Shown here piece by piece: positions 9,829 through 35,340 of a DNA stretch of 37,035 nt. Under the pieces are notes generated by a model. The model saw only the letters and a list, made by a program, of their open reading frames with translations. It was not told where the DNA came from and searched no databases. Source of the stretch: an uncultured Mycoplasma sp. (GTDB taxonomy: Bacteria; Bacillota_I; Bacilli_A; RF39; UBA660); contig CAZEAD010000001.1 of the NCBI GenBank assembly GCA_964510115.1, positions 1-37,035 of the forward strand, given 5' to 3'. Position 1 is the first letter of the stretch. Each line of letters starts with the position of its first letter. The position numbers and the translations under genes are program-made.

Positions 9829-9902
9829 GGGGCTATAGCCAAGTGGTAAGGCATGGGTCTGCAAAACCTTGAGCACCGGTTCAAATCCGGTTAGCCCCTC
9901 CA
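9829..9902 (+). tRNA. tRNA-Cys: tRNA-Cys (anticodon GCA), CCA encoded
   Basis: Acceptor stem GGGGCTA/TAGCCCC, anticodon loop CT-GCA-AA, T-arm GGTTCAAATCC, discriminator U73 (a Cys identity element), then CCA. Length 74 nt. Confidence 0.95.
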
Positions 9903-10640: not shown

Positions 10641-10652
10641 CAATTAAGTTTA

Positions 10653-11467: not shown

Positions 11468-11683
11468 AGTATCAACTCCTAAATATTATTTTATCACAAA
11501 AACAAAGTTTTTTAAGAAATTTAAAAAAGTTGTATTAAAATATTATTAACGAAAAACTTAATAATCCCAACATAAATTTCAATAAAAATATACAAAATTT
11601 ATAATTAAAAACAACCATCAAAGTTCACCAAACAAAAAAGTAGTTTATTAAAAATCAATATACTACTTTTTTAATCATTATAT

Positions 11684-12205
11684 TTATACTCTTTTTCTTA
11701 TCGTACTTATAACAGAATTATTAATAGAATACCAACAATCATCAGTTAAAATTCTAAAAGGACACTCATCAACATAATTATAAATACCATTTTTTTGACA
11801 ATTATGAGGACATAAATCATCACAATAAGAACATCCATAATAATCTAAATAATCCAAAGGACAACCATCCAAAGTAGATAATTTTGGTAAATCTCCTGCT
11901 AAAAAGTCCTCATAAGAAACCATCTCCGCACAAGATTCATCACTTTGATATGGATTAGCAAGAGTAACAAACTTAACACTAGGAACAACATTTTTAGAAA
12001 AAAATAACTCCTTTTCAACCAAAACAAAATGATCATTTTTATAGTAACGATTATCATCTTCAAGAATCAAAGGTTCTAATTTATACCCAGAACCAAGACA
12101 TTCCATACAAAGAATAGCAACATCACTAAAAGAATCATATTTTATTCCAGTACCATTACAAGCTTCACAATTACACTTTACATTCTTTAAAAACTTAGTA
12201 CTCAT
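11684..12205 (-). CDS. Cys-rich 173-aa cytoplasmic protein with two DnaJ-type CxxCxGxG zinc-finger motifs
   Basis: CEACNGTG and CMECLGSG near the N-terminus. C-terminal Cys cluster GCPLDYLDYYGCSYCDDLCPHNCQ..ECPFRILTDDCW. GAGGGGG RBS 7 nt upstream. Confidence 0.7.
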   Translation of the reverse strand: MSTKFLKNVKCNCEACNGTGIKYDSFSDVAILCMECLGSGYKLEPLILEDDNRYYKNDHFVLVEKELFFSKNVVPSVKFVTLANPYQSDESCAEMVSYEDFLAGDLPKLSTLDGCPLDYLDYYGCSYCDDLCPHNCQKNGIYNYVDECPFRILTDDCWYSINNSVISTIRKRV

Positions 12206-12233
12206 TACAATACCCCCTCAATAAGTAAGCTAT

Positions 12234-12262
12234 ACTATAACACAAACAAAATAATTTCGCAA
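12234..12262 (-). promoter_or_regulatory. Sigma-A promoter (extended -10) for the Cys-rich gene
   Basis: Minus strand reads TTGCGA (12262-12257), 17 nt, TGT-TATAGT (-10 at 12239-12234). Confidence 0.6.
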
Positions 12263-12296
12263 CTAAAAGTTAAACTATCAAAAAACAATTACAAAC

Positions 12297-12323
12297 AAAA
12301 AAAAGAAGAAAAATCTTCTCTTT
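12297..12323 (-). terminator. Intrinsic terminator after the 795-aa scaffoldin-like gene
   Basis: Minus strand reads GAGAAGA-TTTT-TCTTCTT followed by a T8 run. The stem is short and AT-rich. Confidence 0.45.
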
Positions 12324-12332
12324 ATTTAATAA

Positions 12333-14708: not shown

Positions 14709-14719
14709 ATAAACCTCCA

Positions 14720-17700: not shown

Positions 17701-20251
17701 CAACACCAATTGTATATTCCTTAAAACCAGTAACACTCTTTACATTAGCATTTGTTGTCGTACCATTAATATCTATTTTCGTTACCTTCTCATCATAAGT
17801 ATATGTATAAGTTCTAGTACCACTTGAGAAATTAGGACTCAATACACCTTGCGGATCACTTGTTACATTAAGTTCTGACAAAGTTGTATCATTTGATTGT
17901 CTATAGACATTTAAAGTATATGTTTCTTTAGTTGTTCCATCTTGAGCAGTAACCTCAACTAATATAGAATTATTTCCAAACTTCAAATTACTATTTCCTG
18001 TTACAGTATAAGTAGCATGTGGATAACTAGTATGAGCTGTAATATTTAAAGAAGTTATACTTCCTGAAACTGGATCCAATGTATATGTATCAGTTCCACT
18101 TGTAAAACCTGCAATAGCAGTACCATTTACATCAATACCAGTTAAAGTTGCATCAGTATTAAGCTCTCTTACAACTCTAATATTATAAGTTTTTGTCTTA
18201 TTATCCTCAGCTGTTACTACTAATTCAAAATCATTATTTCCAAAATCAAGTGTTTTATTTCCAGTTCCAGTAACACCTTTAGCATTCGCACTACCAGCTG
18301 TTGCTTTTATCTCAACACTATCTATATTATTTGGAACACTAACTGTATAACTATCTTCAGTAGGACTAAAACTTGGATTAAGTGTATAAACAGTTCCACT
18401 ATTTTCAACACTCAAACTTCCTAAACTTGTATCTGAAGATTTCTTTCTTTCAAAATTAATTGTATAAGAATTAGTTGTACCATCCTCAGCTGTTACTGTA
18501 ATAACAGCATTTGTATCAACACCAATTGTATATTCCTTAAAACCAGTAACACTCTTTACATTAGCATTTGTTGTCGTACCATTAATATCTATTTTCGTTA
18601 CCTTCTCATCATAAGTATATGTATAAGTTCTAGTACCACTTGAGAAATTAGGACTCAATACACCTTGTGGATCACTTGTTACATTAAGTGCTGATAAAGT
18701 TGTATCATTTGATTGTCTGTAAACATTTAAAGTATATGTACCCTTAGATACACCATCTTCTGCTGTTACCACTACAGTAATTGCATTATCTCCAACTTTT
18801 AAATTATTATTACCATTAACTACATATGTAGCATATTGAAAACTAGGAGTAGCAGTAACGTTTAAAGAAGTTACACTATTAACAACTGGAGCTAAAGTAT
18901 AAGTATCAGTACCACTCGTAAAACCATTAACTGTTACATTATTTACTTTTAAATCCGATAAAGTTGTATCTGTACTTGGATTTGATCTTGTTATTTCAAG
19001 TTCATAAGTATTTGAACTACAAACATTTCCCGGAACATCTTTATATAAAACATTACAATCTTCTGCATCTACAATAACACTTTTTTTATGCAAACCAGCT
19101 GTTGCAAAATTAAAATTTCCTGTTCCCTCTCTTATCGTCCCAGGTGAAACAGCAGTTGCGCTTACCAAAGTACTAGTAGTTCTATATGGAACAGTAGCAG
19201 TATATTTATAAGAACTATCAGAAAAATTTGGAGTCAATGTAATACCTGATAAAGAAAGAGCAGAAAGAGAAGCAACATTTGACAATCTCTTAATAACAAT
19301 TGTATAAATTTCTGCCGACCCATCTGCAGCAGTTACAGTAATAGAAAAACTATTATCTCCAACTACCAAATTTTTATTTCCAAGTTCACCAGGTAAAATA
19401 GAAGCACCAGAATCATGACCAACAGCTTGTAAATCAATACTAGATATTGCATTAGGAACAACAGTATTATAATTTGTAGTTGTACTGCCAGCAACAAAAG
19501 TAGGATTTAAAATATAAGATGTTTCCCCATTTTTAACAGTCAAACTTGCAAGAGTATTATCACTTGAAACCTCACCATATACTTCATATGAAACTGGAGT
19601 ACTAGTCATACTAGAAGCATTACCATCTTGATCAGTCTTAGAATTTCTTTCATCATCAAAAGTAAATTCAATCTTAGACTGTGGAGTTGCATCATCTTTT
19701 ACTTTAAAGAAATAAAAGAACATAACTCCTCCAGGATTAGTTAAAAGTGACCTAGATGCACTTTCATCCCCCAAAGTTACATTAATTAAATTTTTCCCAT
19801 CTTTAAAAAGTGGCATCTCATTAGCATCAGAAATTGTCCAACGAACACGAGTAGCAGCACTACCAGTTCCTGGGAATACTCCACCATTCTTCTCTGCTCT
19901 GTTATCAAACTCTAACATAATAAGATCTTCATCTTTCACTAACTCTAAAGCATTAGGATCATAATACATACCAATTTGTATTATCATAGCATCAGCCGGA
20001 TCCCCTACTTTATACTTAACACCCGCAGCTACATAACTACCAGGGTTAATAGCAGCACCATCACTAATTTTTACAGCATCGCCATCTTGATATGACATCA
20101 AAAAATCAGCAGTATCTAATCCATCAAATTCATATAATTCAACAGATATATCATAAGGAGAAGCTGCATTTACATCAAAAAATGGAACAAACATAAAAAT
20201 AGCGATAAGCAACAAAACAAAAATATTTCTTATTTTAAAACTGTACTTCAT
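14720..20251 (-). CDS. Giant secreted adaptor-like protein: signal peptide, cohesin-like module, 16 cadherin-like modules, X-like module, type-I-like dockerin
   Basis: The ORF is 1849 aa from ATG 20269. The internal ATG 20251 (MKYSFKIRNIFVLLLIAIFMFVPFFDVNA) fits the upstream extended -10 and the GGAAG RBS better. The C-terminus has two Ca-binding dockerin segments. Stop is TAA at 14720-14722. Confidence 0.85.
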   Translation of the reverse strand: MKYSFKIRNIFVLLLIAIFMFVPFFDVNAASPYDISVELYEFDGLDTADFLMSYQDGDAVKISDGAAINPGSYVAAGVKYKVGDPADAMIIQIGMYYDPNALELVKDEDLIMLEFDNRAEKNGGVFPGTGSAATRVRWTISDANEMPLFKDGKNLINVTLGDESASRSLLTNPGGVMFFYFFKVKDDATPQSKIEFTFDDERNSKTDQDGNASSMTSTPVSYEVYGEVSSDNTLASLTVKNGETSYILNPTFVAGSTTTNYNTVVPNAISSIDLQAVGHDSGASILPGELGNKNLVVGDNSFSITVTAADGSAEIYTIVIKRLSNVASLSALSLSGITLTPNFSDSSYKYTATVPYRTTSTLVSATAVSPGTIREGTGNFNFATAGLHKKSVIVDAEDCNVLYKDVPGNVCSSNTYELEITRSNPSTDTTLSDLKVNNVTVNGFTSGTDTYTLAPVVNSVTSLNVTATPSFQYATYVVNGNNNLKVGDNAITVVVTAEDGVSKGTYTLNVYRQSNDTTLSALNVTSDPQGVLSPNFSSGTRTYTYTYDEKVTKIDINGTTTNANVKSVTGFKEYTIGVDTNAVITVTAEDGTTNSYTINFERKKSSDTSLGSLSVENSGTVYTLNPSFSPTEDSYTVSVPNNIDSVEIKATAGSANAKGVTGTGNKTLDFGNNDFELVVTAEDNKTKTYNIRVVRELNTDATLTGIDVNGTAIAGFTSGTDTYTLDPVSGSITSLNITAHTSYPHATYTVTGNSNLKFGNNSILVEVTAQDGTTKETYTLNVYRQSNDTTLSELNVTSDPQGVLSPNFSSGTRTYTYTYDEKVTKIDINGTTTNANVKSVTGFKEYTIGVDTNAVITVTAEDGTTNSYTINFERKKSSDTSLGSLSVENSGTVYTLNPSFSPTEDSYTVSVPNNIDSVEIKATAGSANAKGVTGTGNKTLDFGNNDFELVVTAEDNKTKTYNIRVVRELNTDATLTGIDVNGTAIAGFTSGTDTYTLDPVSGSITSLNITAHTSYPHATYTVTGNSNLKFGNNSILVEVTAQDGTTKETYTLNVYRKSNNTTLSELIVTSDPQGVLTPTFSGNKKSYRYIYDESVEKINVNATAADSKVIRIEGIGEYTVGVDTVATIKVVAEDESEDTYTVTFERETSSDVTLASLSVENGDNVYTLDPRFSPNVDTYTVSVPNDIDQVEIKATASSENVKSVTGIGNKSLAFGNNEVKIVVTAEDDSTKTYTVNIKRELSSDADLLDIKVGGVSVTDFNKDTITYTLDPVGSAISSLAITYTKSHDEADVVVSGADFLVEGLENNITLTVTSQDGSVTKVYTLKVRRLLSDANLATLEVTSDPQGVLTPEFNPNTNSYVYKYDRTVTTIHVAATSNDAIGITGTGDYTIGTDSQATITITPEDGNLKTYVIDFEQVLDDDGTLSALTVSKDGSDYTLSPVFAPDHKEYEVHVTSDVTSVNISAVANSPYASSVIEGVGDVTLEYGSNEFEIKVTAENNEKTIYKLTIIRAMNSNSGLASLEVDGVLVPGFVTSKTSYTLDAVSNIKDSIVISATGEENTTVTGTGTKTLQVGDNRFEVVVTAQDNVTKTTYVINIRRKSDNNYLGNLEISEGTLTPTFNKETENYTATVASGITSVIVTASKEDQASKLEIGKDLTSLTETDTYTYSDLKAGANELKIKVTSENGTEKVYTLVITREQDPTDQKITSSVYNVTTDNILGVKSLTSIDDFKDNIDNENAYLVIYDSTDTTVVTDSNIGTGMIVKLIINGEIKDQKVIIVLGDTTGDGEIDLLDAVKITNDFIGKSSLTGAYRIAGNVIDDDAIDLLDAVKVTNHFIGKALID
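14723..14908 (-). other. Dockerin (two 22-residue segments) of the 1849-aa protein
   Basis: DTTGDGEIDLLDAVKITNDFIG and NVIDDDAIDLLDAVKVTNHFIG. These are EF-hand-like D.[ND].D..ID loops followed by helices. Confidence 0.75.
14909..15136 (-). other. X-like module immediately preceding the dockerin
   Basis: YNVTTDNILGVKSLTSIDDFKDNI...LVIYDSTDTTVVTDSNIGTGMIVKLIINGEIKDQKVIIVLGD. The same layout precedes the other two dockerins. Confidence 0.5.
15151..19568 (-). repeat. Array of 16 cadherin-like modules with an internal three-module super-repeat
   Basis: Counted by eye from recurrent L.SL.V...L.P.F.....Y...V......i.a........v.G.g...l..G.N...v.VTAeDg....Yt..v.R units. Modules 4 to 15 form four A-B-C triads. 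Confidence 0.85.
17091..18722 (-). repeat. Near-perfect tandem duplication, 2 x 816 bp (272 codons, three cadherin-like modules per unit)
   Basis: Direct comparison shows 17091-17851 identical to 17907-18667 (761 bp, no mismatch seen). A few mismatches occur in the remaining about 55 bp of each unit (for example 17852 c versus 18668 t). Confidence 0.97.
19569..20161 (-). other. N-terminal cohesin-like module of the 1849-aa protein (tentative)
   Basis: ..IIQIGMYYDPNALELVKDEDL..GGVMFFYFFKVKDDATPQSKIEFTFDDE resembles the cohesin i.YDp..Le.v / f.fkvk....g...i.f pattern. It is longer and more divergent than the other two. Confidence 0.4.
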
Positions 20252-20283
20252 AAAACACTTCCAAATCATCTATTCTTATAATG

Positions 20284-20381: not shown

Positions 20382-20408
20382 AAAAAAAAGAGATACATTA
20401 GTACCTCT
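20382..20408 (-). terminator. Rho-independent terminator after the 3460-aa gene
   Basis: Minus strand reads AGAGGTAC-TAAT-GTATCTCT (8 bp, one G-U) followed by T8. The stem overlaps the TAG stop. Confidence 0.7.
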
Positions 20409-23400
20409 AATTTACAGATGAGATTATCATTAAAATATAATTATTCAATATTGCTTTATCACCAACATTGACCGCTCCATCACCATTTATATTAGCAGCT
20501 ATAAATGGGTAATCACTTAAAAGTGAAATCATCAATATATGATTATTAATCATTGCTTTATCACCAACATTAATTTTACCATCACCATTGACATCACCTA
20601 AAACAATAACTTCTAATTCATCATAAACAATATCATCTTTTTCCAAACGTACTTTCATATAACTACTAGTCAAAGCTGTTAAATCACTAATCAAATTATT
20701 TTCTTTATCATAGAAATGTACCATAGTTAAATCATTATCAAAAGTTGTAATAAAATCATCTAACTTATAATTTGGTTCCATTCCAACAATATAATTATCA
20801 TCACGATTAATTGTATAAATAGGATTAATCAAAGTATAAGTAGTACTATCTCTAGTAATATTAAGCTTATATTCTTGAGTTGTATAACCATCCTTAGCAA
20901 TAACCTCAATTGTATAAATATTAATAATATCTAAAGATAAATCCAAATCACCAAGCAAATTAACTGTAGACTCAGGATCCTTAGCTATTGCAGTTATTTC
21001 ACTTTCCAAAAGTTTATCCTTACTTCTAGACACCTGAATATTATAAACAAAAGTATCTGGATCAAAAGCAAAATCATATCCTAAAATCTTCAAACTTTCT
21101 AATCTAGCATCAGATGTTGTCTCTCTAGTAACATTTATCGTATATGTCTTTTCATTACCATTTTCAGCTTTTACCACAATCGTTCTTACAAAATTATCAT
21201 TAGGAATAGCTTTCTGTTCATTACCTGTTACAACTGCAGTACTATCAGCAACCTCTACATCAAATTTTAAGAACAAATCTGTATCAGAAACCTTCATAGA
21301 ATATTCTAAAGTATCTGGATCAAATTCTGGAGATAACTCTCCAACACTAGGAACAATACTTATTACATCATTATTAGAACTCTTAACCCTAGTTATAACA
21401 ACTGTATAAGTCTTTGGATTACCATCTTCACTTGTTACTACAACATCATAACTATTTACATCATCTGTTAATTCCTTTGTTCCAAGACCAGTTATTGTTG
21501 CATTAGCATCAAATGCAGTTGCATCAATAGTAACAAACTTAATACTAGAAGGAACCTCAAGAGTATATTTTAAAGTATCTTTATCAAAAGTTTCATTAAA
21601 AGGAAGAACTTCTATTCCATTTAATACTCGTAAATTACTAAGGCTATTATTACCTGAAGCAATACGATTAACATTAATAGTATAAGTTCTCTCAACACCA
21701 GTCATTGATCTTGTTTTAACAAATATCTTATTTTGACCAATATTTAACTTATGTTTTCCAAGTCCTGAAATAATCTTAGCAGTTGTATCACTAACATCAG
21801 CATCAACTGTTATTTCAGTAACATCATTAGCAACCTCAACATTATAAACCATTTCATCTGGAGAGAAAGCCGGACTAAGCGTTCCTGGATCAACTGTTAA
21901 ATACAATAATTTATTATTAGTAGATAACTGACGATTTACATACAAAGTATATGTTTCAGTAAGAGTACCATCACCACTAGTAACAACTATTTCAACTTCA
22001 TTCATTCCAATATGGAAATTCTCATTTCCATTAATTTCAACATTAGCATTTTCATCAATTGGAAGTGCAGTAATATCAACATTAAATACCTCATTTGGAA
22101 CATCAATATAATATTCCATAAAATCTGAATCAAATTCTTGATCTAACTCATATCCTGTAACTTCCAAACTTTTTAACTTAGCACTAATCAAACTTTCCCT
22201 TACTACATTTATGTAATAAGATCTTACTGTTCCAAGTTCACTAGTTACATCAATTTTTATTTTATTTGATCCAACATCTAACGTATAATTATCAAAACCA
22301 CTAACAGTTGAACCACGAATCTCTGCAGCACCTGCAACTGTTATATTATCAATTTCATAAGGAACTGTTACCTCATACTCAGTTGTTTCCTTGTCAAATT
22401 CCGGAGTAAGTTCTCCTTCACTAACCAACAATGAAGCTAAATAATTATTATCACTACCATTCTTTGTAATCAAAACTGTGTATACCTTTTTAGTACCCGC
22501 TTCACTAGTAACTTCAATTAACACTTCATTTACCCCAGTAGCCACTGGATGTAAACCTATACCAGAAACCACAGCAGATGAATCTTCAGGAGTAGCATTT
22601 ATTATTACACTATTAACATCATTACCAACATCCACAGTGTAGAAAGTTATAGCCTTATGGAATGCTGGAATTAACTCCTGACCAACAACTTCCAAACTTG
22701 CCAAGTTATTATTTTTACTAGGACTTCTATTAACAGTTAAAGTATATACTTCTTTATCTTTGCCATTCGGAGCAGTTACTGTAATTGTTACTGTATTAGC
22801 ACCAGTTACAAAATCTTTATTACCTTCTACTACATAAACAGCTTCATCCTCAGTTGGTTTAATTGTTGTAAACTCTAAAGAACTACCACTAGTATTAATA
22901 GTATATTCCTTAATATCTTTATTAAACTTTGGACTCAATGTATGACCTTTGATTACCAAACTTGCCAAAGTAGCATCTGGACTCTTTTCACGTGTAATTA
23001 TTACTTGATAATCTTTTCTAAGACCTTCTTCATTAACTACTCCAACACCAATTGAATTTTTACCAACTCTTAAATCATAACTACCATTACCAACAACATT
23101 ATGATTTTCATTTACCGCTGTTCCCTTAATAGATACCTTAGATACATAATATGGAACAGTTACATTATAAATATAATCATAACTAGAAAATTCTGGAACA
23201 AGCTCCCCTTCTAAAACTTCCAAATCACTAAGCAATAACTCATCAGTTGTTGGTTCTTGTCTTATAACATTTAATGTATAATTTTTCTTATCACCACTTG
23301 GAGCAGTTACTACCACTACCACCTTATTGTTACCTACAACAAAATTTTCATTTCCCACTATTTCATATGTTGCATTTTCATCCTCCGGAATAGCCTCTAA

Positions 23401-26400
23401 AGTAAGTTTTGTTACACTATTATCTACATAAACATCATAGAAGATCGTTGTATCTTTAAAAGTAGGATTCAAAGAACCTTCTAAAGCAAACAAATATGCC
23501 AAATCATCATTATGAGATAAATCGCGAACAACTAAAACTTCATAATATTGAACAATCCCAGACTCACTAGTAACAGTAAGACTAATTGGATTTTCTCCTG
23601 TTTTCAAATCATATGACCCATTTCCTAAAACTTTAGCCTTCGGATCATTTGGAATACCTTCAATTGCAATTCTCTTAACATCATACTGAACATCCAAAAC
23701 ATACTGTGTATCTGAAACTTTCGTAACAACACTATTTTGATCATTCTTAACTTCTTTTAAAGAATTATCATCACTTTGACCTTTAGTAACTTTAAGAGTA
23801 TAAGTTTTTTCCTCACCAAGTTCACTAGTAACCTTCAAAGTTATAGTATTCTCACCTGTTACTAAAGCATATTCACCATTTCCAGTTATATAAGCATTAG
23901 CATCAGCCAAAATACCTTCAACATTAATTTTACTAGTATCATGAGGAACAGTCACCTCATATTCAGTTGTATCCTTATCAAATTTTGGATTAAGTTCTCC
24001 AGCACTTAAAATAATATCACTTAAATCATTATTATTTGAAATATCCTTTGTAACATATAAATAATAAACTTTCTTAGCTTTATTTTGAGCAATACTAGTA
24101 ATTGTAATCTGATTAACATTAGCAATTAAATTATTATTTCCACGTATCGTATAAGTAGTAGTTTCTACCTCAGGAGTAACTTTAATATCAAGTTTATTTA
24201 CACTCTTTGGAACAGTAACATGATACTCTGTAACATCCCTATTAAACTCTTCTTCCAAAGCATAACCATTTACCTCAATATTAGCCAAATTAGGATTTCC
24301 ATCTTTTTGTTTAATAATATTCAAATTATAAGTATTAATATCATTTTCCCCATTTGTAACATTTATCTTAACTTGATTAACACCACTTAAAAGTATACTA
24401 GGTTTTACAATTTCTACATTTGCTGAACTACTTTCTGCAAGAGCAATAATATCTACATCATTTACACTACTAGGAATTTCAATTGTATAATCATTTACAA
24501 GTCTATCAAAAACAGGTTTCAAAGTATAAGAAGTTGTTCCATTTTTAACTTCTAAACTACTCAAGAATACATTAGTATCTTGTTGTTTATAAATATGGAA
24601 AATATATGTTTTTGTCTCACCATTCGGAGCAGTAATAACAACATAAGCATCATTCATTCCAAGTCCTAAATTCTTATTACCATTAATAGTAACTGTTGCC
24701 TCAGGTAGTTCAGGCGTTACTTGAAAGTCAACCATTGAATATTGACTTTCTAAATTAATAGAATACTCATAAATTAATGGTGCGAAAGTCAACTCCATCT
24801 CTGGATCAACAATCTTTATATCTAAAACATTAGTATTTCCTCTTGGATCCCTAGTAATATCATAATTATAAATAACATTAGAAACCCCATCTTCACTAAT
24901 AACTTCGACTTGGAACTTATTAAGTCCAGAAGCTAAATCAACTTTACCATCCTCGATTTCTACAAAGTTTTCTCCATCCCAAGCACGATAAATTACAGTT
25001 TGGTATTCAGTTCTTAATAAAGCAATTATTTCTACTTTACTAATTGCAAATGGAACCAATATATCATAATCAGTTGTATCCGCATCAAAAGCATACTTAC
25101 AATATTCATCACCAATACTACAAATATATGGTGTCATTTTATTAATCTTAATTGTATTAGGAGTTGGATCAGTAGAAGGTTCTCTATAAATATTTAAATT
25201 ATATACCCTTACACTACCATCAGTTGAAGTAACTGTAATAGGTAAAACAGATTCATTTGGAGGTATCTTGTGTGTACCAAGTCCTAAAACAGTAGCCATA
25301 CTGTCTTTAGGAACAGCATCAACTTTTAAAGTAGCCTCATCCTCTAACAAATAAACATCATACTCTAAAGTACCTGGATGAAAATCAACAGAAATATCTC
25401 CATCATTCAAAGTTATACTATCTAAAAAGTTATTACTACTTAATACTGTCAACAAATCAATACTTGCATATCCATTACCATTATTACCATGCCCACTAGC
25501 AAAATATTCACCATTTGGATTTGGCATTAACTCTAACTTATCTTTTTTAGTTGTCCAAGAATATCCTGCTCCATCAATCATTACAGTATCGATAAAATAT
25601 CTGCCTAAGTAATTATAAGAATCTTCAATTGTTGTATAAGTAGAAACATTAGGAGTACCATCTTCCATAACTCCAATACTTCCAGCATGACCTGAAATAT
25701 ATGAAGATCCAGATCCACCTGAAATATAAGAAGAATTACCAGCATTTAAATTATAACCACCATAGTAACCACCACCAGCTCCACTTGAACCAGCAGTAGC
25801 ATCATTACCAATTTGTCCATAACCAAAAGCATATCCTGAAGTTTGAGTAGCAATTAAATTAGAATTAGATGGCTTATAACCTTGCAAGCCTCCACCTGGA
25901 ACACCAACATAATAATAACTACCACCACTTGCTCCAGCAGATACCATAATCCTACTTCGTAAAGAAGTAACATCGTTCCAAGCGCCACCAATCAAACGAA
26001 CATCAGTAGCTCCACCACCACCAGAACCAGGTTCTGGTGATGAATCATGGTTAGAATCGTTTCCACCATTAGCTCCACCGTTATAGCCACCACGACCACC
26101 AGTAAATCTATCAATTGTAGCAGAATCTTGTCCTTTACAACCAACATTGACATATAAAGTATCTCCTTGCCTTAAAAGAATTGTTCCTTTAGTATAAGAT
26201 CCTTCTCCACCAATATATTTATATACACCATCAGTCATTCCTTTACCACCAGCAGCACCCCATAACTTAATGCTATAATATCCTGAATATGGTGCAACAA
26301 ATTCCTCTGTTTTAGCAGTACAACTATAATTTTTACTATAACTTGCATCATCAGTATGAACAATTTTAATATTATAAACAGTATCATCTACCCCATCAAC

Positions 26401-29400
26401 ATGAGAAGTTATTTTTATAATATCTCCCTCTTCAATAAATGAATTACCAACTATATCAATTTTTGCTGATTTATAATAAGGAATAGCTATAAAATCAAGC
26501 TCTAGAATATTTTTATTTATAACCAATTCATAATCAGTTTGATCTTCTTTAAAATCTAAATCTATTCCTGGAAGAGATGTTTGAAGAGATTTCAACAAAC
26601 TAGTCTTTTTTCTGTTAATATTTACAGTATAAGTCTGATTCTCAGTAGAATCCTCAGATATTACAAACAAAACCTTAGATAAATTATCTACATCAAAATC
26701 ATAAGTTCCTTCTTGTCTTACTGTTTGTCCTTCATTATGTTTTATTCCTGCAATACTTACTTTATCTAAATAATAAGGAACTTCAACATCATAAACAAAC
26801 TTAGTACTTGAAAAATCTTTTATAGGAACACCATTTACTAAAATACCCTCCAAGAATTTATAATTATTTGCTTCTCTTATAAAAGTTAATTTATATATTT
26901 TAGTATTACCAGCATCATCAGTTAAAGTTATATTATGCTCAGTTGTACCAATCGGTATTGTTAATTTACCAATTCCTGTAATCAAAGCATCTTCATTATT
27001 TGAAGTAGCCTTAATTTCTAAATCAGTATCAATATTATCTAAATTAACTGTATATTCATAAACATCTTCAGCAAAACTTGGAGATATTTCTCCTTTTGAA
27101 GTAGTAAGAGATGTCAAAACAGTATCAACAGAACCTATAAATCGAATCTTAACATAACCATTTTCACTGTTTCCAGTCATATTCTTACTAGCATCAGTAT
27201 AAGTAGGCATGGATTCATTTCCAGCTTTCATTATAATATTAGAAAAAGATTTACCACTATAATGAATACTTTGCCCTGTATGAACTATCTTAGTGCTTAC
27301 AGAACTTTCATCTATAGCATTACAACCACTACAACCTGAAACGAAACTAGAACCACCTGCTCCAGAAGTATTATAAGTTGAAGCAGCGCCACTCGAATTA
27401 GCAAATCCACCATAGTATCCGCCACCACCGCCGCCAACATCAACATTAGAATTCTTAAAAACACCATCCATACCTTTACCAAAAGCATATCCAGTTGTTT
27501 GAGTACCACCTTTTGAATATTTCGTATTTTGACCACTCAAAGTTCCACCATATCCACCAGCAAGGCCATAAGCAGAACCACCACCACCAGCCGCAACCAT
27601 AATTCTTGATTTTAAAGAGTCAAAATTATCCCAATCTCCGCCTACTAAACGAATATCAGAAGCTCCTCCGCCTGCAGCAGCAGCCTCATCATCACTATGA
27701 TCATAATCTCCACGACCACCACCATTATAGCCACCAGGAACAATCGTTGAAGCCTTAGCATCACTTCCACGACCACCTACATTAATATAAAGAATAGTTC
27801 CTTCTTCTAAATAAATATCTCCTTTTGTATAAGCACCTTTTCCACCAGCATAATTAGCAGAAGCAAGATCAGAAGTATTCTTTCCACCAGCAGCACCCCA
27901 AGCTTCTAATCTATAATATCCAGTTTTATTAACAATATACTCTTCAGTATGGCCAGTATAAGCAAAATCTACATTACTTTTAGCATATTCACGATAAACA
28001 TTAAATACATACTCATTAGTATTCCCATTATCATCTGAAATTGCTATCGTAAAACTATTATCTCCTACTCTTAAATTTAAAGAACCATTAACAGTATAAG
28101 TAATATTATCTTCTTTCAAAATTTCTGGTGTTAATTTTTTAACATTATTTGGAACCTTCAAATCATAAGACATAACATTTGGAGAATAGTTAAACTTAAC
28201 TTCTTTAAATGCAATTTCTGATAAAGTAGGCTTTTCAATAGTTGGAATAATATTATAAACACTAAGAGAGCCATCTTCATTCATCAAAACAATATAATGA
28301 GTTTCTCCTTCTTTTAAGGTTACTTCTCCATCACCTATAATTGTAACAGCCTTATCTGTTGTTACTTTTATATTTGTCGAAAAATTATCATTAGGAATTA
28401 AAACATGATATGTAAGTATGCTATCACTAACAGGTTCAACAACTTTAGCTCCTTCAACATCTAAATCAATAATAGCTGGTAAAGCTTCAATTAACGTTAT
28501 TCTAGCATGACCATTACTATCATTACCAGTCATAGTTGTTCCTGGAGTTTGGAAACTAGGCATTGAAACATTTCCGGCTAGCATAACAATGTCTGTAAAA
28601 GATTTGCCACTATAATGTATACTTTGACCTGTATGAACTATATTAGTACTTACAGAACTTTTATCTATAGCATCACAACCACTGCAACCAGAAACGAAAC
28701 TAGATCCACCTGCACCAGCAGTGCCATAAGCTGAAGCAGCACCACTTGAATTAGCATAACCACCATAGTAGCCACCACCAGCGCCACCAACATCAACATT
28801 AGAATCTTTATAAATTCCATCCATTCCTTTTCCAAAAGCATACCCAGTTGTTTGAGTTCCACCTTTTGAATATTTAGTATCCTGTCCAGCTAAAGCACCA
28901 CCATAGCCTCCACTAAGGCCATCAGAAGCACCACCGCCACCACTAGCAACCATAATTCTTGATTTCAAGGAATTGAAATTATCCCAATCACCGCTAATTA
29001 AACGAATGTCAGTAGCTCCTCCTCCTGCTCCAGCAGCTTCATCATCACCATGATCCCAATCACCACGACCTCCGCCATTATAGCCACCAGGAACAATTGT
29101 CGAAGGTTTTGCATTAGTTCCTTTACCACCAACATATATATAAAGAACTTCATCCTTTTTTAAGTAAATTCTACCTTTTGTATAAGCACCTTTTCCACCA
29201 TAATAAGTTACTCTAGTGCCAGAAACAATATTATTACCACCACCAGCACCCCAAGCTTCTATCTCATAGTATCCAGTTCTTGGTACTTTAAAAGTTTGAT
29301 AATTTCCAGAATAATTAAAGTCCTCAACCTCTGTCACATCATTATCTTTATATTCTTCGCGAATAACTTTTATTTTATATTCAGCATCATCACAATTTTC

Positions 29401-30789
29401 ATCAAAAACACGAATCGTTATTAAGTTTTCTCCAACTTCCAAATCCAAATCCCCAACTATTTCATAAGTAGTAGATGCATCTTTTTTAATAAAAGGAGCT
29501 AAACTTTTTACATTATATGGAACAGTTCCAGAATACTCATAAACAAATGGTTTAAAATCCAATTTTAAATAATCAAAATCAAGTGAATTAAAATGAGCTT
29601 TTTGAGTTTCCATATATACAGTATAAATCAAAACATCACCAGATTGAGTTGTCAAAGTAATATCAAAACTATTTCCTGAAACCAAAGCAATATTTTCATA
29701 TCCAGTAACACTAACAGGAGTACCATAAAATTCTAAATCAAATGTTCCTGTACTAGCATGATTTTTTTTCAAATAAGCAATATATTCAAAATGATTATAA
29801 TCATTAGCTCTAAAAACCATTTGGTCTTCTAAACTAATATTAGCAATAGCTTCTCCACCAGATATCTTAGTAATTCTTGCATAACCATTTCCTGCATTAC
29901 CAGTCATATTACCACTACCAGTAGTATTTGGCATTGAAGCATTACCAGCAATCATTTGCGTATCTTTAAAAACAAAATTACTATAGTGAATATTTTGTCC
30001 TGTATGTACAATATTATCACTTGTTGATTCTAAAGCTATAGCATCGCATCCACTATGTCCAGAAATAAAACTAGATCCACCAGCACCAGCAGATGTCCAA
30101 GTATTATAAGGAGAAGAATTAGCAAATCCACCATAGTATCCGCTACCACCACCAGCAACATCAACATTAGAATTTACATAAACACCATCCATACCTTTAC
30201 CAAAAGCATATCCGGTTGTTTGAGTACCACCTTTCGAATAAGTTACATCGCCACCAGTTAAAGCGCCACCATTTCCTCCATTCAAATTATAAGTAGCTCC
30301 TCCGCCACCACCAGCAACCATTACTCTAGCTTTTAATGATTTAAAATCATCCCATTTTCCACCTACAATACGAATATCAGTAGCTCCTCCGCCACCTCCT
30401 GATGCTTCATCATCAGTATGGTCATGTTCTCCACGACCACCGCCATTATAACCACCAGGAACAATTGTAGATTTTTTAGCATCAGTTCCTTTACCACCGA
30501 CATAAATATACAATTTCTGCCCTTTATGTAAAAAAGTAACACCACTTGTATAAGCACCTTTACCAGGTGTCATTGATCCAGAAGAAGAACCATCTCTTAA
30601 ATTCTTTCCGCCGCCAGCACCCCAAGCCTCTACTTTATAATAACCATCACTAGGCACAACAAATTCCTGAACAGATCCTGTATAATTAAAAGAATATTGC
30701 GATCCAGCAGCATTAACATCCAAAAAAGAAGCTAAAAAAACAACTAAAACACTAATAATATAAACAAATAAAAAACGTCTACTGCGCAT
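20407..30789 (-). CDS. Giant (3460 aa) secreted protein: signal peptide, four ALK/LTK-like glycine-rich modules interleaved with cadherin-like modules (24 in total), X-like module, dockerin
   Basis: Single uninterrupted ORF with signal peptide [27 protein letters not shown]. Modules are detailed in the sub-features. The C-terminus reads [22 protein letters not shown]...[21 protein letters not shown]. Confidence 0.9.
   Translation of the reverse strand: [3460 protein letters not shown]
20410..20598 (-). other. Dockerin of the 3460-aa protein
   Basis: [22 protein letters not shown] and [22 protein letters not shown], two near-symmetric Ca-loop plus helix segments. Confidence 0.8.
20599..20845 (-). 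other. X-like module preceding the dockerin
   Basis: [75 protein letters not shown]. Confidence 0.5.
20849..25443 (-). repeat. Array of 17 divergent cadherin-like modules
   Basis: Each is about 88-100 aa and ends in ..Y.l.v.R/K[DEQ]. Examples are [50 protein letters not shown] and [27 protein letters not shown]. Confidence 0.85.
25444..26334 (-). other. Glycine-rich module 4 (most divergent)
   Basis: [107 protein letters not shown]. Confidence 0.7.
27130..27972 (-). other. Glycine-rich module 3
   Basis: [137 protein letters not shown]. Confidence 0.75.
28480..29322 (-). other. Glycine-rich module 2
   Basis: [125 protein letters not shown]. Confidence 0.75.
29854..30696 (-). other. Glycine-rich module 1
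   Basis: [128 protein letters not shown]. Confidence 0.75.
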
Positions 30790-30833: not shown

Positions 30834-30842
30834 ATTATATCA
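30834..30842 (-). promoter_or_regulatory. Extended -10 element (TGATATAAT) upstream of the 3460-aa gene
   Basis: Minus strand reads TGA-TATAAT about 45 nt upstream of ATG 30789. A TTGATA hexamer nearby is spaced too closely (10 nt) to be the -35. Confidence 0.4.
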
Positions 30843-30895
30843 TATTCTTTATCAATTTAAAATTCTTTTTTGAATTTTTTATACAAAATTTAATA

Positions 30896-31554: not shown

Positions 31555-31582
31555 AAAAATATAAACAATGGAGGTATGCAGT

Positions 31583-33790
31583 TTGAAAAAAATTACTAAT
31601 ATATTATTAATCATTGCAATTATATGCAATTATTTTATTTTACCAATCACAGTTAACGCTGCAACAATAACAGCAACAATCATCGATCCTGATGGAGTAA
31701 ACGTAAGAAATGGTCCTGGTACTAACAATACAAAAATAGGTGTTCTAGCTTTTAAAAAACAAATTACCTTAGTATCCACTACCAAGCATAAAGGAACAGG
31801 TTGTTCAAAAGGTTGGTATCAAATAAACTATAATGGTTCAACCAAAGCTTATGTATGTAGTGAACTAGTAACAATCAACAATGAAAACACTACAACTAAT
31901 AACAAAACATATTACACTACTAGCGAATGGGGAACAAGAATAAATGAAGATTATGCCAACGTTAGAAAATCAACCAGCATGTCTGCAACAGCCCTAGACA
32001 AATTATTTCTAGGAACAAAAGTAAATATCTTAGAAACAATTAACACCTCAACAAGTGGTTGTAGTGAAGGTTGGTATAAAATATCTTATTATAACAATAA
32101 AACAGGTTATGTATGTAAAAGATTAATAGACAAATACGAAGATGTCACAGCAAGTGATAAAGACTATGAAAAACAACTTAAAACACTAGGTTTCCCAGAT
32201 AGTTATATCCCCTTCTTAGTTTACCTACATAAAAAACATCCTAATTGGAACTTTAAACCAGATTTAACTAAAAAAGACTTTGCAACTGCAGTAAACAAAG
32301 AAACTGGAAAAAACTATATTCAAACTAATATAGATATTTATAGAACATCAAACACAGCAGTAGAATCAGGAACCTGGTACATTGCTTCAAGCCCAGTTGT
32401 AGCAATATTCCTTGATCCTAGAAACTATTTAAATGAAAAAAATATTTGGGTTTATGAAGATTTAACTTATGATGAAAAAGCAACAACCTATCATGATACT
32501 GTAAAAAGTATATTTGCCAATACTTATCTTGATACTGAAGAATATATCGGATACTTTTTAGAAGGCGGTAAAGAATCCATGGTATCACCAGTTCATTTAG
32601 CAGCACGCGTAAAACAAGAAGGAGGAACAAACGAAAAATATGATGGCGTAAGTGGAAAATCAACTTTAAAATACGATGGAAAAGCCCTTACAAATGCCTA
32701 TAACTATTACAATATTGGAGCTTATGAAGATTCCAAAACAAAAAGTGCTGTAGCAAGAGGACTAGCAGTAGCTAAAGGATATGTAGATAATTACTATGGA
32801 ACTCCATGGGACACTAGAGAAAAAGCAATCAAATATGGAGCCAAATTCATTGGAGACAAATATGTTTCAAAAAAGCAAAACACTCTATACTATCAAAAAT
32901 TCAATACTGCTAATAATTCATACTATGCCCCATATACCAATCAATATATGACAAACGTTATGGCCCCAGCTAGTGAATCATTATCAATTAACAGTACTAA
33001 AAAAAATAATAATATTGCTGATTTAACATATACATTTGCTATTCCAGTTTATGACAATACCCCACAAAGTTATTTAACCTACCCTCCACTTGGAGACACA
33101 ATAAACGATTTAACAAGCATTAAAGTAAATAACACAACAGTAAATGGTTTTGATAGTGACGTCTTAGAATATACACACTACATTAGTTATGATACAACTG
33201 AAGTATCTCTAACAGCAGATAAAAAATCAGCTAAAAGTACTGTAAAAGGTACAGGCACAATAAAAACACCAAATGCAAATACAAAAGTTCAAATTATAGT
33301 AACAAGCGAAGTTTTAGAAACAAAAACCTATACAATTACTTTAATAAAAGAAGATAAACCAGCCGAAGATACTTTAACAGCTGAAGAAATAATTAATAAA
33401 TTAGATGTAAAATTAAGTAATAATTATTTAACAGGTATTTCCTCAGGAACTTTACCTGCAACACTTGCTAACGATATCAATAAAATATCACCTTCAGCAA
33501 AAGTTACAATAACTGATAAAAATAAAGTTAAAAAAACAAGCAAATTAGCAACCGGAGACATCATAACCATAAATAATACAAGTTATACAATCTCAATCAA
33601 AGGAGATCTAAATGGTGATGGTACAATAAACTCTGCAGATTTCTCAAGAATTCAAAAACATATTTTAAAATATAGCACCCTAAAAAATGAATACAAAGCC
33701 GCCGCTGATGTCAACTACGATGGAAATATCAATTCCGCAGATTTCTCAAGAATTCAAAAACATATTTTAAAATATATAAAATTAAAATAA
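31583..33790 (+). CDS. Secreted peptidoglycan hydrolase: 2 x SH3b, GH73-type N-acetylglucosaminidase, cadherin-like module, X-like module, dockerin
   Basis: SH3b modules: GVNVRNGPGTNNTKIGVL..CSKGWYQINYNGSTKAYVCSELV and YANVRKSTSMSA..CSEGWYKISYYNNKTGYVCKRLI. GH73-like core: VSPVHLAARVKQEGG...YNYYNIGAYED...TPWDTREKAIKYGAKFIGDKYV..QNTLYYQKFN. The ORF-track ATG 31568 contains the SD (ATGGAGGT). TTG 31583, 8 nt after GGAGG, gives a canonical signal peptide (M)KKITNILLIIAI..PITVNA. Confidence 0.85.
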   Translation: MKKITNILLIIAIICNYFILPITVNAATITATIIDPDGVNVRNGPGTNNTKIGVLAFKKQITLVSTTKHKGTGCSKGWYQINYNGSTKAYVCSELVTINNENTTTNNKTYYTTSEWGTRINEDYANVRKSTSMSATALDKLFLGTKVNILETINTSTSGCSEGWYKISYYNNKTGYVCKRLIDKYEDVTASDKDYEKQLKTLGFPDSYIPFLVYLHKKHPNWNFKPDLTKKDFATAVNKETGKNYIQTNIDIYRTSNTAVESGTWYIASSPVVAIFLDPRNYLNEKNIWVYEDLTYDEKATTYHDTVKSIFANTYLDTEEYIGYFLEGGKESMVSPVHLAARVKQEGGTNEKYDGVSGKSTLKYDGKALTNAYNYYNIGAYEDSKTKSAVARGLAVAKGYVDNYYGTPWDTREKAIKYGAKFIGDKYVSKKQNTLYYQKFNTANNSYYAPYTNQYMTNVMAPASESLSINSTKKNNNIADLTYTFAIPVYDNTPQSYLTYPPLGDTINDLTSIKVNNTTVNGFDSDVLEYTHYISYDTTEVSLTADKKSAKSTVKGTGTIKTPNANTKVQIIVTSEVLETKTYTITLIKEDKPAEDTLTAEEIINKLDVKLSNNYLTGISSGTLPATLANDINKISPSAKVTITDKNKVKKTSKLATGDIITINNTSYTISIKGDLNGDGTINSADFSRIQKHILKYSTLKNEYKAAADVNYDGNINSADFSRIQKHILKYIKLK
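33602..33787 (+). other. Dockerin of the autolysin
   Basis: DLNGDGTINSADFSRIQKHILK and DVNYDGNINSADFSRIQKHILK. The SADFSRIQKHILKY coding stretch (gcagatttctcaagaattcaaaaacatattttaaaatat) is duplicated verbatim at about 33636 and 33738. Confidence 0.8.
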
Positions 33791-33804: not shown

Positions 33805-35340
33805 ATGAAAAAAAAATATTTATTAAATTTATTATTTCTACTTAGTCTTTTCTTAATTCCAAATATTAATGTTCAAGCTGCAACTGGTAAAATCGACCTA
33901 TATGTCTCAAGCAAAAACGTTACCATTGGAAGCTCAGTAACAGTAAGTGTCTATTGTGAAAGTTCTGTAACAATAGGAACCTGTGAATATACTATTGATT
34001 ATGATTCTAAAAAACTAAAACTTACTTCTGTCTCAGATCAAGCAAGCTGTAATCCAAGTGGTTATTGTATGTATGCAGTAGGAAGTAAAAAAAGCTCAGC
34101 AAAAAAATTCACATTCAAAGTTTTAACAACTGGAACTCACAAAGTAAGTGCCAAATCCGCAACTATGTATGAACTAAATCATAGCGAAGAAGATGTTTTA
34201 ATAAAAACAAGTGTTGATCCAACAACATTCACAAGTACAACAGCATCATCAACAAACTCAAGTGGCAATAATTCTTCTAGTAATTCCAGCCAAACAACCT
34301 ACTCTACTAATAATAATTTAAAAAACCTAACAGTAGACAATGTTCCCCTATCTCCTAAGTTTAATAAAAACACAACAGAATACAAAGCCACTATCGATTC
34401 TAATATAAGCTCTATAAAAATAAACGCTACCAAAGAAGATAATAAAGCAAAGATAAAAGGAACTGGAACGTTCCCAGTAACATACGGTGATAATAAATTT
34501 CCTATTGTAGTTACTTCCGAAAAAGGAACAACAAAAACTTACAATATTACAATAACAGTTGAAGATAAAAATCCAATACCAATAACAATCAATGAAAAAA
34601 ACTATAATATTATAAAATCTGCAAGTATCTTAACCAAACCAAATAATTACACTGAAACAAAAGTAACCATAAATGATCAAGAAATTCCCGCTTTCTATAA
34701 CGAATTGCTAGATTATACAATAATCGGTATAAAAGATGTTTCAGGAAAAATAAATTATGCAATCTACGAACAACCAAATACCTATCGTTTATATAAAGAA
34801 ATACAATTTGATGCTACAACCTTAGAAATAGATGAAACAAAAACCTTATCAGGATATAATAAAATAGATCTAGAAATAAATGATAACAACATTCACGCTT
34901 ATCAAAAAGATGAATCATCACACTATGCTTTCTTCTATGGAACAAACCTTGCAACAGGAAAATCTGGTTGGTATAGTTATGATAAAGAAGAAAATACTAT
35001 TCAAAAAAACTATGAAGATGATTTATCACTACAAGATACAAAAATAGAACAAGCCAAAAAAATAATCATTACATTAGTACTAGCATGTATCTTATTAGTC
35101 ATAATTTTAATAATCGTTTCAATTATGAAAATGAAAAACAATCATCAAAAAACCAAAGAACAACAAAAACATTATGAAGAATTAAAAGAAAAGAAAAAAA
35201 ATAATAATCCTTCTAATAAAAAACCAGAAAAACAAACAAAAGAACCAAAAGAACTTCTTGAAGAAATTACTAAAAAAGAAAATGAAGAACAACAAAAACT
35301 AAAAAAGAAAAAACCAGAAGATATCTTAGATGAATGGTAA
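33805..35340 (+). CDS. Second membrane-anchored scaffoldin-like protein: signal peptide, cohesin-like module, Ser/Asn linker, one cadherin-like module, unknown module, TM helix, Lys/Glu-rich cytoplasmic tail
   Basis: AAGGAG RBS 8 nt upstream. Signal peptide MKKKYLLNLLFLLSLFLIPNINVQA. Cadherin-like module LKNLTVDNVPLSPKFNKNTTEYKATI..VVTSEKGTTKTYNITITVE. TM helix IIITLVLACILLVIILIIVSIM (about 35063-35128). The tail is about 70 aa and KE-rich. Confidence 0.85.
   Translation: MKKKYLLNLLFLLSLFLIPNINVQAATGKIDLYVSSKNVTIGSSVTVSVYCESSVTIGTCEYTIDYDSKKLKLTSVSDQASCNPSGYCMYAVGSKKSSAKKFTFKVLTTGTHKVSAKSATMYELNHSEEDVLIKTSVDPTTFTSTTASSTNSSGNNSSSNSSQTTYSTNNNLKNLTVDNVPLSPKFNKNTTEYKATIDSNISSIKINATKEDNKAKIKGTGTFPVTYGDNKFPIVVTSEKGTTKTYNITITVEDKNPIPITINEKNYNIIKSASILTKPNNYTETKVTINDQEIPAFYNELLDYTIIGIKDVSGKINYAIYEQPNTYRLYKEIQFDATTLEIDETKTLSGYNKIDLEINDNNIHAYQKDESSHYAFFYGTNLATGKSGWYSYDKEENTIQKNYEDDLSLQDTKIEQAKKIIITLVLACILLVIILIIVSIMKMKNNHQKTKEQQKHYEELKEKKKNNNPSNKKPEKQTKEPKELLEEITKKENEEQQKLKKKKPEDILDEW
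33886..34230 (+). other. Cohesin-like module of the 511-aa protein
   Basis: GKIDLYVSSKNVTIGSSVTVSVYCESSVTIGTCEYTIDYDSKKLKLTSVS..KKFTFKVLTTGTHKVSAKS fits the cohesin pattern. Confidence 0.55.

Follow-up and report, generated by a model that had tools for sequence, protein, structure and literature searches.

Four glycine-rich modules of the ALK/LTK family in a giant putative surface protein

The 37,035-nucleotide stretch analysed in this study (contig CAZEAD010000001.1 of assembly GCA_964510115.1 from an uncultured Mycoplasma sp.; hereafter the window) contains a gene for a protein of 3,460 residues that bears four modules of the glycine-rich domain (GRD) of the receptors ALK and LTK. The modules, designated M1 to M4, are members of the Pfam family PF12810 (ALK_LTK_GRD) and belong with the ALK/LTK domain at the family level; we propose below that they probably serve as binding heads at the end of a stalk of cadherin-like domains. 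The initial annotation of this DNA, which was made from the letters without database searches, had given the correct accession, and PF12810 matched the protein with an E value of 8.6e-192. The score for the whole protein was 635 bits against a cut-off of 24.5, distributed over four stretches. Each isolated module scored 140–186 bits (E 1.8e-40 to 1.2e-54) and was aligned from position 6 or 7 to position 242 or 243 of the 243-position model.

The relationship was also recovered in the opposite direction, from bacterial sequences to the animal structures. Searched against the PDB, a profile of the four modules matched chains of human ALK at E 2.9e-06. With a profile of 80 bacterial sequences, LTK (1.3e-09), C. 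elegans SCD-2 (2.3e-09) and ALK (3.6e-09) were retrieved, and the alignment to these proteins spans from the first strand to the GGSSF motif. A phmmer search of the PDB with the single sequence of M2 returned no match and profiles were required; the relationship to ALK and LTK is therefore remote. ALK, LTK and SCD-2 show the same motif order (WGAxGG, LYIxVG, GGGGAT, (I/V)(I/M)VAAGGGG, GGGGYxGG, and GxSFIS) with only 16–21% identity to M2. The motifs of human ALK cited in the initial annotation are visible in the alignments of the PDB chains, except for GHGEVNI, which was shown in no output. On the basis of the structural model described below, the modules most probably share the TG (TNF-like plus glycine-rich) fold of ALK and LTK.

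The likeness to the animal receptors is confined to this domain. Members of the ALK family have an EGF-like module, a transmembrane helix and a tyrosine kinase, none of which is present in the 3,460-residue protein. Its context is instead a bacterial signal peptide, cadherin-like domains and a dockerin on a bacterial chromosome, and it holds four copies of the GRD versus one in ALK and LTK. Membership in the ALK-family receptor tyrosine kinases was rejected, since the domain is shared with them but neither an EGF-like module nor a kinase accompanies it. The ALKAL cytokine ligands are metazoan, and the ligand of the bacterial modules must therefore differ.

The region first marked as glycine-rich (25444–30696, minus strand) corresponds exactly to residues 32–1782 of the 3,460-residue open reading frame (ORF), and the four paralogous modules described there are present, with measured lengths of 279, 280, 280 and 297 residues. 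Glycine accounts for 21–23% of each module. M1–M3 are 64–71% identical to one another in protein and 69–77% identical in DNA, while M4 shows 42% identity to M1–M3 and has an insertion of 11 residues in the alignment. At the DNA level, three repeat copies with spacings of 1353 and 1368 nt are 80–85% identical over 300 nt, and two four-copy repeat families take in M4. These repeats were recovered by a general repeat search; Tandem Repeats Finder returned none of them because their periods exceed 500 nt. The description of the modules as tandem holds for the series of four copies but not for their spacing, as two, two and three cadherin-like domains lie between them. Likewise, the ordered motif series assigned to the modules stands as a consensus, whereas a literal match in every copy was not obtained: M1 has RVMVA and DIRI, M2 has TNA for TDA, M3 has V-N for V-P and NGYVKI, and M4 departs at most motifs. 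The cysteine pattern was as first described, with HSGC at residue 245 (M1), CSGC at residues 702 (M2) and 1153 (M3), and HAGS in M4.

Predicted structure of module 2

A single-chain model of M2 was built by AlphaFold2 (AF2) with the 80-sequence alignment. The predicted local distance difference test score (pLDDT) of the model was 96.9 and the predicted template modelling score (pTM) was 0.94, with no segment below a pLDDT of 50. Strands are confined to residues 2–64 and 244–278. The glycine-rich middle region, with block pLDDT values of 81–99, was assigned neither helix nor strand by DSSP and aligns to the GRDs of ALK and LTK. In the model, the layout of M2 is that of the TG domain, a TNF-like sandwich of N- and C-terminal strands carrying a glycine-rich insert; the insert may form a polyglycine-II lattice.

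In the Foldseek comparison with the PDB that the initial annotation had proposed as a check, the top 21 matches (all with E ≤ 0.001) were glycine-rich structures of ALK, LTK and SCD-2, for which PDB entries 7LRZ, 7N00, 7NX1 and 7LIR serve as references. The E values for this set were 4e-09 to 4e-06 with a probability of 1.00. The next matches were the tail tip of mycobacteriophage Bxb1 (E 9e-03) and the fibre of cyanophage Pam3 (E 0.024). The suggested likeness to the T-even phage adhesin gp38 was not borne out: gp38 of Salmonella phage S16 (PDB 6F45) was absent from the best 50 of the 120 Foldseek PDB matches at E ≤ 10. The glycine-rich lattice of gp38 sits on a beta-helix and not on a TNF-like sandwich (PMC9608196). 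It consists of polyproline-II-type helices that form a platform for variable receptor-binding loops (10.1101/2023.11.25.568672; PMC9608196). The resemblance is one of principle and not of family, and the 3,460-residue protein is no gp38-type adhesin.

Distribution and conservation of the domain in bacteria

The initial annotation had implied that such a bacterial domain is rare, whereas its bacterial and phage members run into the thousands and multi-domain proteins are frequent among them. PF12810 itself, its spread in bacteria and viruses, and proteins with several GRDs are already known; they can be found in public databases, and standard annotation recognises them. When M2 was used in a word-indexed search, more than 2,259 proteins were obtained at E ≤ 1e-05, mostly of 270–480 residues with one domain. 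Direct homologues show 40–61% identity, and some of the proteins obtained, from Segatella, Bacilli and Acutalibacteraceae, are named "glycine rich domain-containing protein" by NCBI. An exhaustive HMMER search over 1.84 billion cluster representatives (clustered at 50% identity) yielded 8,807 clusters at E ≤ 1e-3, of which 1,399 reached E ≤ 1e-30. The closest genomes with GRDs belong to uncultured Bacilli of the gut, with human, mouse, rabbit and rumen sources.

Multiple near-full GRDs were common among the 268 retrieved proteins, with at least two in 121 and at least three in 71, up to a maximum of nine in proteins of about 7,000 residues. PF12810 matched seven stretches in one protein (P0125) and six in another (P0127). 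One homologue (P0131) has three GRDs together with 21 cadherin-like domains, and a 3,033-residue protein from a metagenome-assembled genome (MAG) of Hadza-gut Bacilli (L002) has three GRDs, 14 cadherin-like domains and a dockerin; the combination of GRDs with cadherin-like domains is therefore a recurring architecture. A different giant architecture was observed in MAGs of Bacillales and Erysipelotrichaceae. In these (L005, 6977–16705; L006, 3992–13726), two proteins of about 3,240 residues contain a single internal GRD at approximately residues 1025–1240 and a GLUG motif, and have no cadherin-like domain or dockerin.

Another group of relatives resembles type IV pilins. A prepilin-type N-terminal motif (e.g. 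KGFTLIE) was found in 25 of the 83 full-length single-domain homologues, 17 of them with Glu at +5, and Pfam N_methyl matched several of the pilin-like GRD homologues. The GRD is thus also in use as a C-terminal head on pilin-like proteins of type IV in Bacillota of the gut. The prepilin-type fraction of approximately 30% of the full-length single-domain relatives contrasts with the dockerin-anchored stalk that carries the domain here.

Conservation was evaluated on 332 non-redundant domain instances taken from the retrieved proteins. Thirty-five positions are conserved at ≥90%, and 24 of these are glycine; the others, which are core or packing residues, are Y20, W25, A27, Y48, L55, N83, A104, T105, V126, A127 and I275. 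Variable stretches lie between the glycine runs, at profile positions 32–41, 71–78, 89–98, 149–153, 170–178, 192–201 and 227–231. This pattern suggests that the family is designed as a conserved scaffold with variable loops, as described for phage fibres. Positions that differ among M1–M3 have a family entropy of 2.82 bits versus 1.84 bits (p = 4e-11). M1–M3 keep some of the loops that vary in the family (D.DH.DDEA, G.Y..SNVD, and.NIVH), and M4 differs in all of them.

Relatives in phages

The closest structural matches of M2 are predicted phage proteins. A Foldseek search of BFVD with the model gave 80 viral matches at E ≤ 1e-3. The best of these, uncultured siphovirus-like proteins with template modelling (TM) scores of 0.74, 0.71 and 0.70 and 29–32% identity, are closer to M2 than ALK is, and the remainder include Caulobacter phage proteins, virion and short-tail-fibre proteins of cyanophages, and proteins of giant viruses. 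Three PHROG families with no assigned function (5811, 1589 and 7388) match at 1e-33 to 1e-35. A tblastn search of 50,697 phage genomes with M2, with the low-complexity filter on, gave no match; as the PHROG profiles match strongly, the blank result was probably caused by the filter. Many of the GRD proteins of phages and giant viruses, including the best BFVD matches, carry the automatic UniProt name "receptor protein-tyrosine kinase". The name is likely a systematic mis-annotation that derives from the GRD alone.

A receptor-binding role in phages has support in the literature. In the tail fibre gp24 of Pam3 (PDB 7YPX/7YFW), a helical shaft is combined with a TNF-like and a glycine-rich domain; the latter two superpose on C. 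elegans ALK at an RMSD (root-mean-square deviation) of 2.6 Å over 125 C-alpha atoms, and host recognition was proposed by the authors to occur through the hypervariable distal end of the tip (PMC9608196). The protein TFP_Y of a Klebsiella phage has the same build and recognises lipopolysaccharide (LPS), with host-range mutations in its glycine-rich domain; "binding or catalysis" was raised there only as a possibility (PMC12671077). A receptor-binding protein of a C. difficile prophage, in which the Pfam glycine-rich domain covers residues 14–267, binds SlpA (PMC9615553). A 2024 review of polyproline-II bundles covers ALK, LTK, gp38, antifreeze proteins, Obg and acetophenone carboxylase, and contains no cellular bacterial GRD (10.1101/2023.11.25.568672).

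The phage tips and the present modules have in common the two-part fold, with a conserved glycine scaffold and variable distal loops. They differ in their setting. In the phage proteins, the tip is accompanied by an N-terminal helical shaft or by further domains of fibre or baseplate type, and trimers are assembled with a chaperone; the 3,460-residue protein, by contrast, appears from its sequence to be a cellular product of Sec export whose single chain holds four successive heads.

Layout of the giant gene

The protein is identical to a database entry (P0121). Its domain order is signal peptide, GRD1, two cadherin-like domains, GRD2, two cadherin-like domains, GRD3, three cadherin-like domains, GRD4, 16 cadherin-like domains, a linker of about 80 residues, and a dockerin (Table 1). 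The N-terminus has a basic start, a hydrophobic core and a VNA-A cleavage-type site, which suggest a Sec-type signal peptide. PF12733 matched the whole protein in 19 stretches with an E value of 1.3e-137, and 23 cadherin-like domains were located by jackhmmer; an additional divergent one at residues 311–401 was recognised by eye alone. The dockerin named in the initial annotation is real by Pfam, and candidate cohesin partners are encoded close by. PF00404 scored 36.8 bits on it against the curated cut-off of 22.9 (E 4.5e-09). It contains two duplicated calcium-loop segments, DVNGDGKINVGD and NINGDGAVNVGD, a duplication that is also apparent as a DNA repeat (D10). Besides the GRD, Cadherin-like and Dockerin_1 are the only Pfam domains of the protein, and no NCBIfam model matched it. 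There is weak evidence from pattern scans for a terminator-like hairpin and a promoter-like site at the two ends of the gene; the promoter-like site at 30834–30861 is weakly supported, as the count of such sites does not exceed the shuffled expectation.

Table 1 Features of the giant gene and its surroundings in the window.
Feature	Positions	Strand	Residues and remarks	Basis
Giant surface-protein gene	20407..30789	(-)	3,460 aa	ORF list, translation, Pfam, jackhmmer map
Signal peptide	30709..30789	(-)	aa 1-27 (putative), MRSRRFLFVYIISVLVVFLASFLDVNA, followed by AG	Read from translation
GRD module 1 (M1)	29860..30696	(-)	aa 32-310, 279 aa, HSGC	PF12810 E 1.2e-54, model 6-242/243
Two-cadherin-like spacer	29356..29859	(-)	aa 311-478, first domain divergent	jackhmmer (aa 402-478); by eye (aa 311-401)
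GRD module 2 (M2)	28486..29325	(-)	aa 489-768, 280 aa, CSGC	PF12810 E 2.1e-52; AF2; Foldseek
Two-cadherin-like spacer	27988..28473	(-)	aa 773-934	jackhmmer
GRD module 3 (M3)	27133..27972	(-)	aa 940-1219, 280 aa, CSGC	PF12810 E 1.7e-52
Three-cadherin-like spacer	26356..27117	(-)	aa 1225-1478	jackhmmer
GRD module 4 (M4)	25444..26334	(-)	aa 1486-1782, 297 aa, without cysteine pair	PF12810 E 1.8e-40
Stalk of 16 cadherin-like beta-sandwich domains	20848..25425	(-)	aa 1789-3314	PF12733, jackhmmer
Type I dockerin	20431..20601	(-)	aa 3397-3453	PF00404
Terminator-like hairpin and T-run	20389..20408	(-)	Directly past the stop codon	Pattern scan, consensus match only
Promoter-like site	30834..30861	(-)	Extended -10 (TG), ~45 nt upstream of ATG	Pattern scan
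Gene for 1,849-aa secreted protein	14720..20269	(-)	1,849 aa	PF12733 E 8.4e-131; translation
Gene for membrane-anchored scaffoldin-like protein	12333..14720	(-)	795 aa	PF12733, translation, N-domain model
Cohesin-fold domain of the 795-aa protein	14205..14624	(-)	aa 33-172	AlphaFold2, Foldseek
Gene for 740-aa protein	31568..33790	(+)	740 aa	Pfam: SH3_3 9.2e-22, Dockerin_1 7.6e-17
Gene for 511-aa protein, second membrane anchor	33805..35340	(+)	511 aa	Pfam Cohesin, translation
tRNA-Cys(gca)	9829..9902	(+)	Left island edge	Rfam, ARAGORN

Neighbouring genes for cohesin and dockerin proteins

Two genes for further cadherin-like proteins lie downstream of the giant gene on the same strand, first that of the 1,849-residue protein and then that of the 795-residue protein, with the stop codon of the former overlapping the start codon of the latter. 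The 1,849-residue protein has a signal peptide, a weak cohesin-like N-terminal domain (residues 35–236), 16 cadherin-like domains and a duplicated C-terminus, and its gene contains three 816-nt tandem repeats at about 16436–18832. The duplicated C-terminal segments, GDTTGDGEIDLLDAVKITNDFIG and GNVIDDDAIDLLDAVKVTNHFIG, have the look of a divergent dockerin in the translation. With a candidate cohesin at one end and a candidate dockerin at the other, the protein may be an adaptor scaffoldin.

In the 795-residue protein, a signal peptide and a cohesin precede five cadherin-like domains, and the chain ends in a transmembrane helix with a cytoplasmic tail of about 150 residues. Its N-terminal domain was missed by Pfam, and a homologue search with it returned nothing. 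An AlphaFold2 model from the single sequence had a pLDDT of 83.5 and a pTM of 0.79, and the top 46 Foldseek matches of this model in the PDB were all cohesins, with E values down to 4e-10, TM-scores of 0.63–0.81, and RMSD values to the best cohesins of mostly 2.3–3.2 Å. On the other side of the giant gene, the 511-residue protein has a signal peptide, a cohesin at residues 25–150, a cadherin-like domain, a transmembrane helix and a charged tail. Its isolated N-terminal domain scored 27.9 bits with Pfam Cohesin against the cut-off of 24.1 (E 3e-06). A comparison of the three candidate cohesin domains by single-sequence hhalign was uninformative. The 740-residue protein encoded next to it has two SH3_3 domains, a middle region of about 300 residues without a Pfam match (which holds SPVHLAARVKQEGG), one cadherin-like domain and a dockerin. 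Judged from its domains, it may be directed to the cell wall and docked through cohesin–dockerin binding.

The locus has in common with other cohesin–dockerin assemblies a type I dockerin with two calcium-loop repeats, membrane-anchored cohesins, and a possible adaptor with both modules. It differs from them in lacking a glycoside hydrolase or carbohydrate-binding module and in its cargo, a putative adhesin head. Each anchor relies on a transmembrane helix rather than on SLH domains or sortase, and the linkers are cadherin-like domains.

A variable island in a Bacilli-type chromosome

The G+C content of the window is approximately 30%, and its genes include those for RecU, a class A and a class B penicillin-binding protein (PBP), an LCP protein and isoleucyl-tRNA synthetase (IleRS), a gene set that indicates a Bacilli-type chromosome. 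In a related genome (GCA_947625575.1; L014), in which PBP2 is 85% identical, both flanks are kept in the same order: one runs from RecU to PBP2 and includes tRNA-Cys, and the other holds the SH3–dockerin gene, the cohesin anchor and IleRS. The 740-residue SH3–dockerin protein and the 511-residue cohesin anchor have orthologues of 66% and 61% identity, respectively. No counterpart of the six ORFs at about 9.9–31.5 kb, including all three large cadherin-like proteins, was found in this genome, in which the syntenic site (11908–13388) holds only a NUDIX gene and a 141-residue ORF. The absence of the six ORFs between conserved flanks defines a variable island of about 21 kb next to tRNA-Cys (~9.9–31.5 kb). 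The giant gene and the genes for the 1,849- and 795-residue proteins are inside the island, and those for the 740- and 511-residue proteins are just outside. No integrase and no att-like copy of the 3' end of tRNA-Cys was found, and nothing in these checks points to the island being an integrative element.

Two other features of the island were noted. A 173-residue cysteine-rich ORF (11684–12205, minus strand) with CxxCxGxG-like motifs (CNCEACNGTG and CMECLGSG) has no Pfam match and no counterpart in the related genome. The segment just downstream of tRNA-Cys (9950–11680) has a G+C content of approximately 22% and contains only short ORFs (43–132 residues) without family matches.

Discussion

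We consider it probable that the four GRDs act as multivalent binding heads and sit on a cadherin-like stalk that is assembled through cohesin and dockerin. The 3,460-residue protein would be exported by the Sec pathway, after which its C-terminal dockerin would bind a cohesin, either on one of the two membrane anchors itself or via the putative 1,849-residue adaptor. A fibre of about 100 nm or more would then stand on the cell with the four GRDs at its free end. Each GRD would act as a rigid scaffold, in which the glycine lattice is packed on the TNF-like sandwich, and the ligand would be contacted by the variable loops, as proposed for the phage tail-fibre tips of the same fold. M1–M3 would probably give multivalent binding of one ligand, since most loop sequences are common to them, and M4 would probably have another specificity, since every loop differs. 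By analogy with the phage relatives, which recognise LPS or an S-layer protein, the likeliest target would be a glycan or protein at the surface of other microbes or of the gut of the host.

Several observations weigh against this proposal. The superposition of the M2 model on ALK is only moderate, with TM-scores of 0.39–0.49 and RMSD values of 7–11 Å, and solved phage fibres match weakly, with a TM-score of 0.27 (9d93_Qa, E 9e-3; 7ypx_A, E 0.024). Phage fibres of the TNF-like plus glycine-rich fold are trimers on an N-terminal helical shaft, which is absent here. Differences among M1–M3 are weakly enriched in the variable stretches (54% vs. 41%, Fisher p = 0.07), and the argument for loop-borne specificity is therefore suggestive and not shown. 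On the anchoring side, the cohesin (E 0.013) and the dockerin of the 1,849-residue protein are both below the Pfam thresholds, with no Pfam dockerin match, and the pairings of dockerins with the three candidate cohesins are putative. Literature searches turned up no binding, localisation or expression study of bacterial cell-surface GRD proteins.

The main rival is a structural role, in which the GRDs bind no ligand and serve as rigid spacers, as self-associating units that bundle fibres, or as parts of a protective coat. The conserved positions of the family are almost all glycine and core hydrophobic residues, with no conserved polar pocket; many members have six to nine copies along proteins of 7,000 residues and look like assemblies of building blocks; and TNF-like folds often oligomerise, as noted for Pam3 gp24 (PMC9608196). 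Against such a role, the characterised relatives all bind through the GRD, namely ALK and LTK in the ALKAL-bound PDB entries and the phage fibres (PMC9608196, PMC12671077). The modules are at the end far from the anchor in a protein whose stalk is already formed by cadherin-like domains, and the same domain heads the pilin-like proteins. We regard a structural role as rather improbable.

A catalytic role, for example on polysaccharide or peptidoglycan, with the modules as enzymes on a cellulosome-like scaffold, would fit the classical use of cohesin–dockerin systems for the display of enzymes and the cell-wall-binding SH3_3 domains of the adjoining dockerin protein. Among the 80 closest sequences, D106 and R108 do not vary and E23 hardly does. 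Across the 332 more diverse instances, however, only N83 and T105 are polar positions conserved at ≥90%, no catalytic family was matched in Pfam or NCBIfam, and a catalytic function is not known for any member of the fold, which leaves this role very improbable. It is hardly credible that the giant gene is a prophage gene or a remnant of a phage tail fibre rather than a gene for a cellular surface protein, even though its best structural matches are predicted phage proteins, three PHROG families match it strongly, and it belongs to a variable island adjacent to a tRNA gene. A Sec signal peptide, cadherin-like domains and a dockerin are present in the protein, which has neither a fibre shaft nor a baseplate-docking domain at its N-terminus; phage genes for structural proteins, integrase or lysis were not found within the window, the tRNA 3' end has no att-like repeat, and the other island genes encode cohesin and cadherin-like surface proteins. 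With neither shaft nor phage context, the identity as a phage fibre was rejected. Finally, the chance that glycine-rich low complexity inflated the Pfam score of a disordered region or generic repeat is negligible: the glycine content, the empty single-sequence phmmer search of the PDB and the blank filtered tblastn search of phage genomes would agree with such an artefact, but it is excluded by the match of all four copies, in the same order, over the entire model of 243 positions, the in-register conservation of non-glycine residues (W25, Y48, N83, T105, V126 and others), the confident AF2 model without a low-confidence segment, a fold search topped exclusively by ALK, LTK and SCD-2, and the recovery of ALK and LTK at about 1e-09 by profiles of bacterial sequences.

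With binding heads on a docked stalk as the preferred reading, a wider picture can be drawn, which we offer tentatively and regard as doubtful in its entirety. The island would encode a self-contained three-tier adhesion fibre, held together by cohesin–dockerin pairs, of anchor (795 residues), adaptor (1,849 residues) and four-headed tip, with up to about 44 cadherin-like domains in series and heads that recognise microbial or host surfaces. The GRD would be a general, exchangeable receptor-binding module of bacterial fibres, pilin-like proteins and phage fibres, and the metazoan ALK/LTK domain would be a derived offshoot of it.

The findings overturn nothing, as standard pipelines already recognise the GRD. 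Cellular bacterial GRDs number in the thousands in public sequence data, and the structures and ligands of the family have so far come from animals and phages. The present locus bears on the reuse of polyglycine-II scaffolds across bacteria, phages and animal receptors, and would widen non-cellulosomal cohesin–dockerin systems to include putative adhesins displayed in uncultured Bacilli of the gut. The 3,460-residue protein is a clean and very confidently modelled example with a plausible display apparatus, and may provide an entry point to binding by GRDs outside animals.

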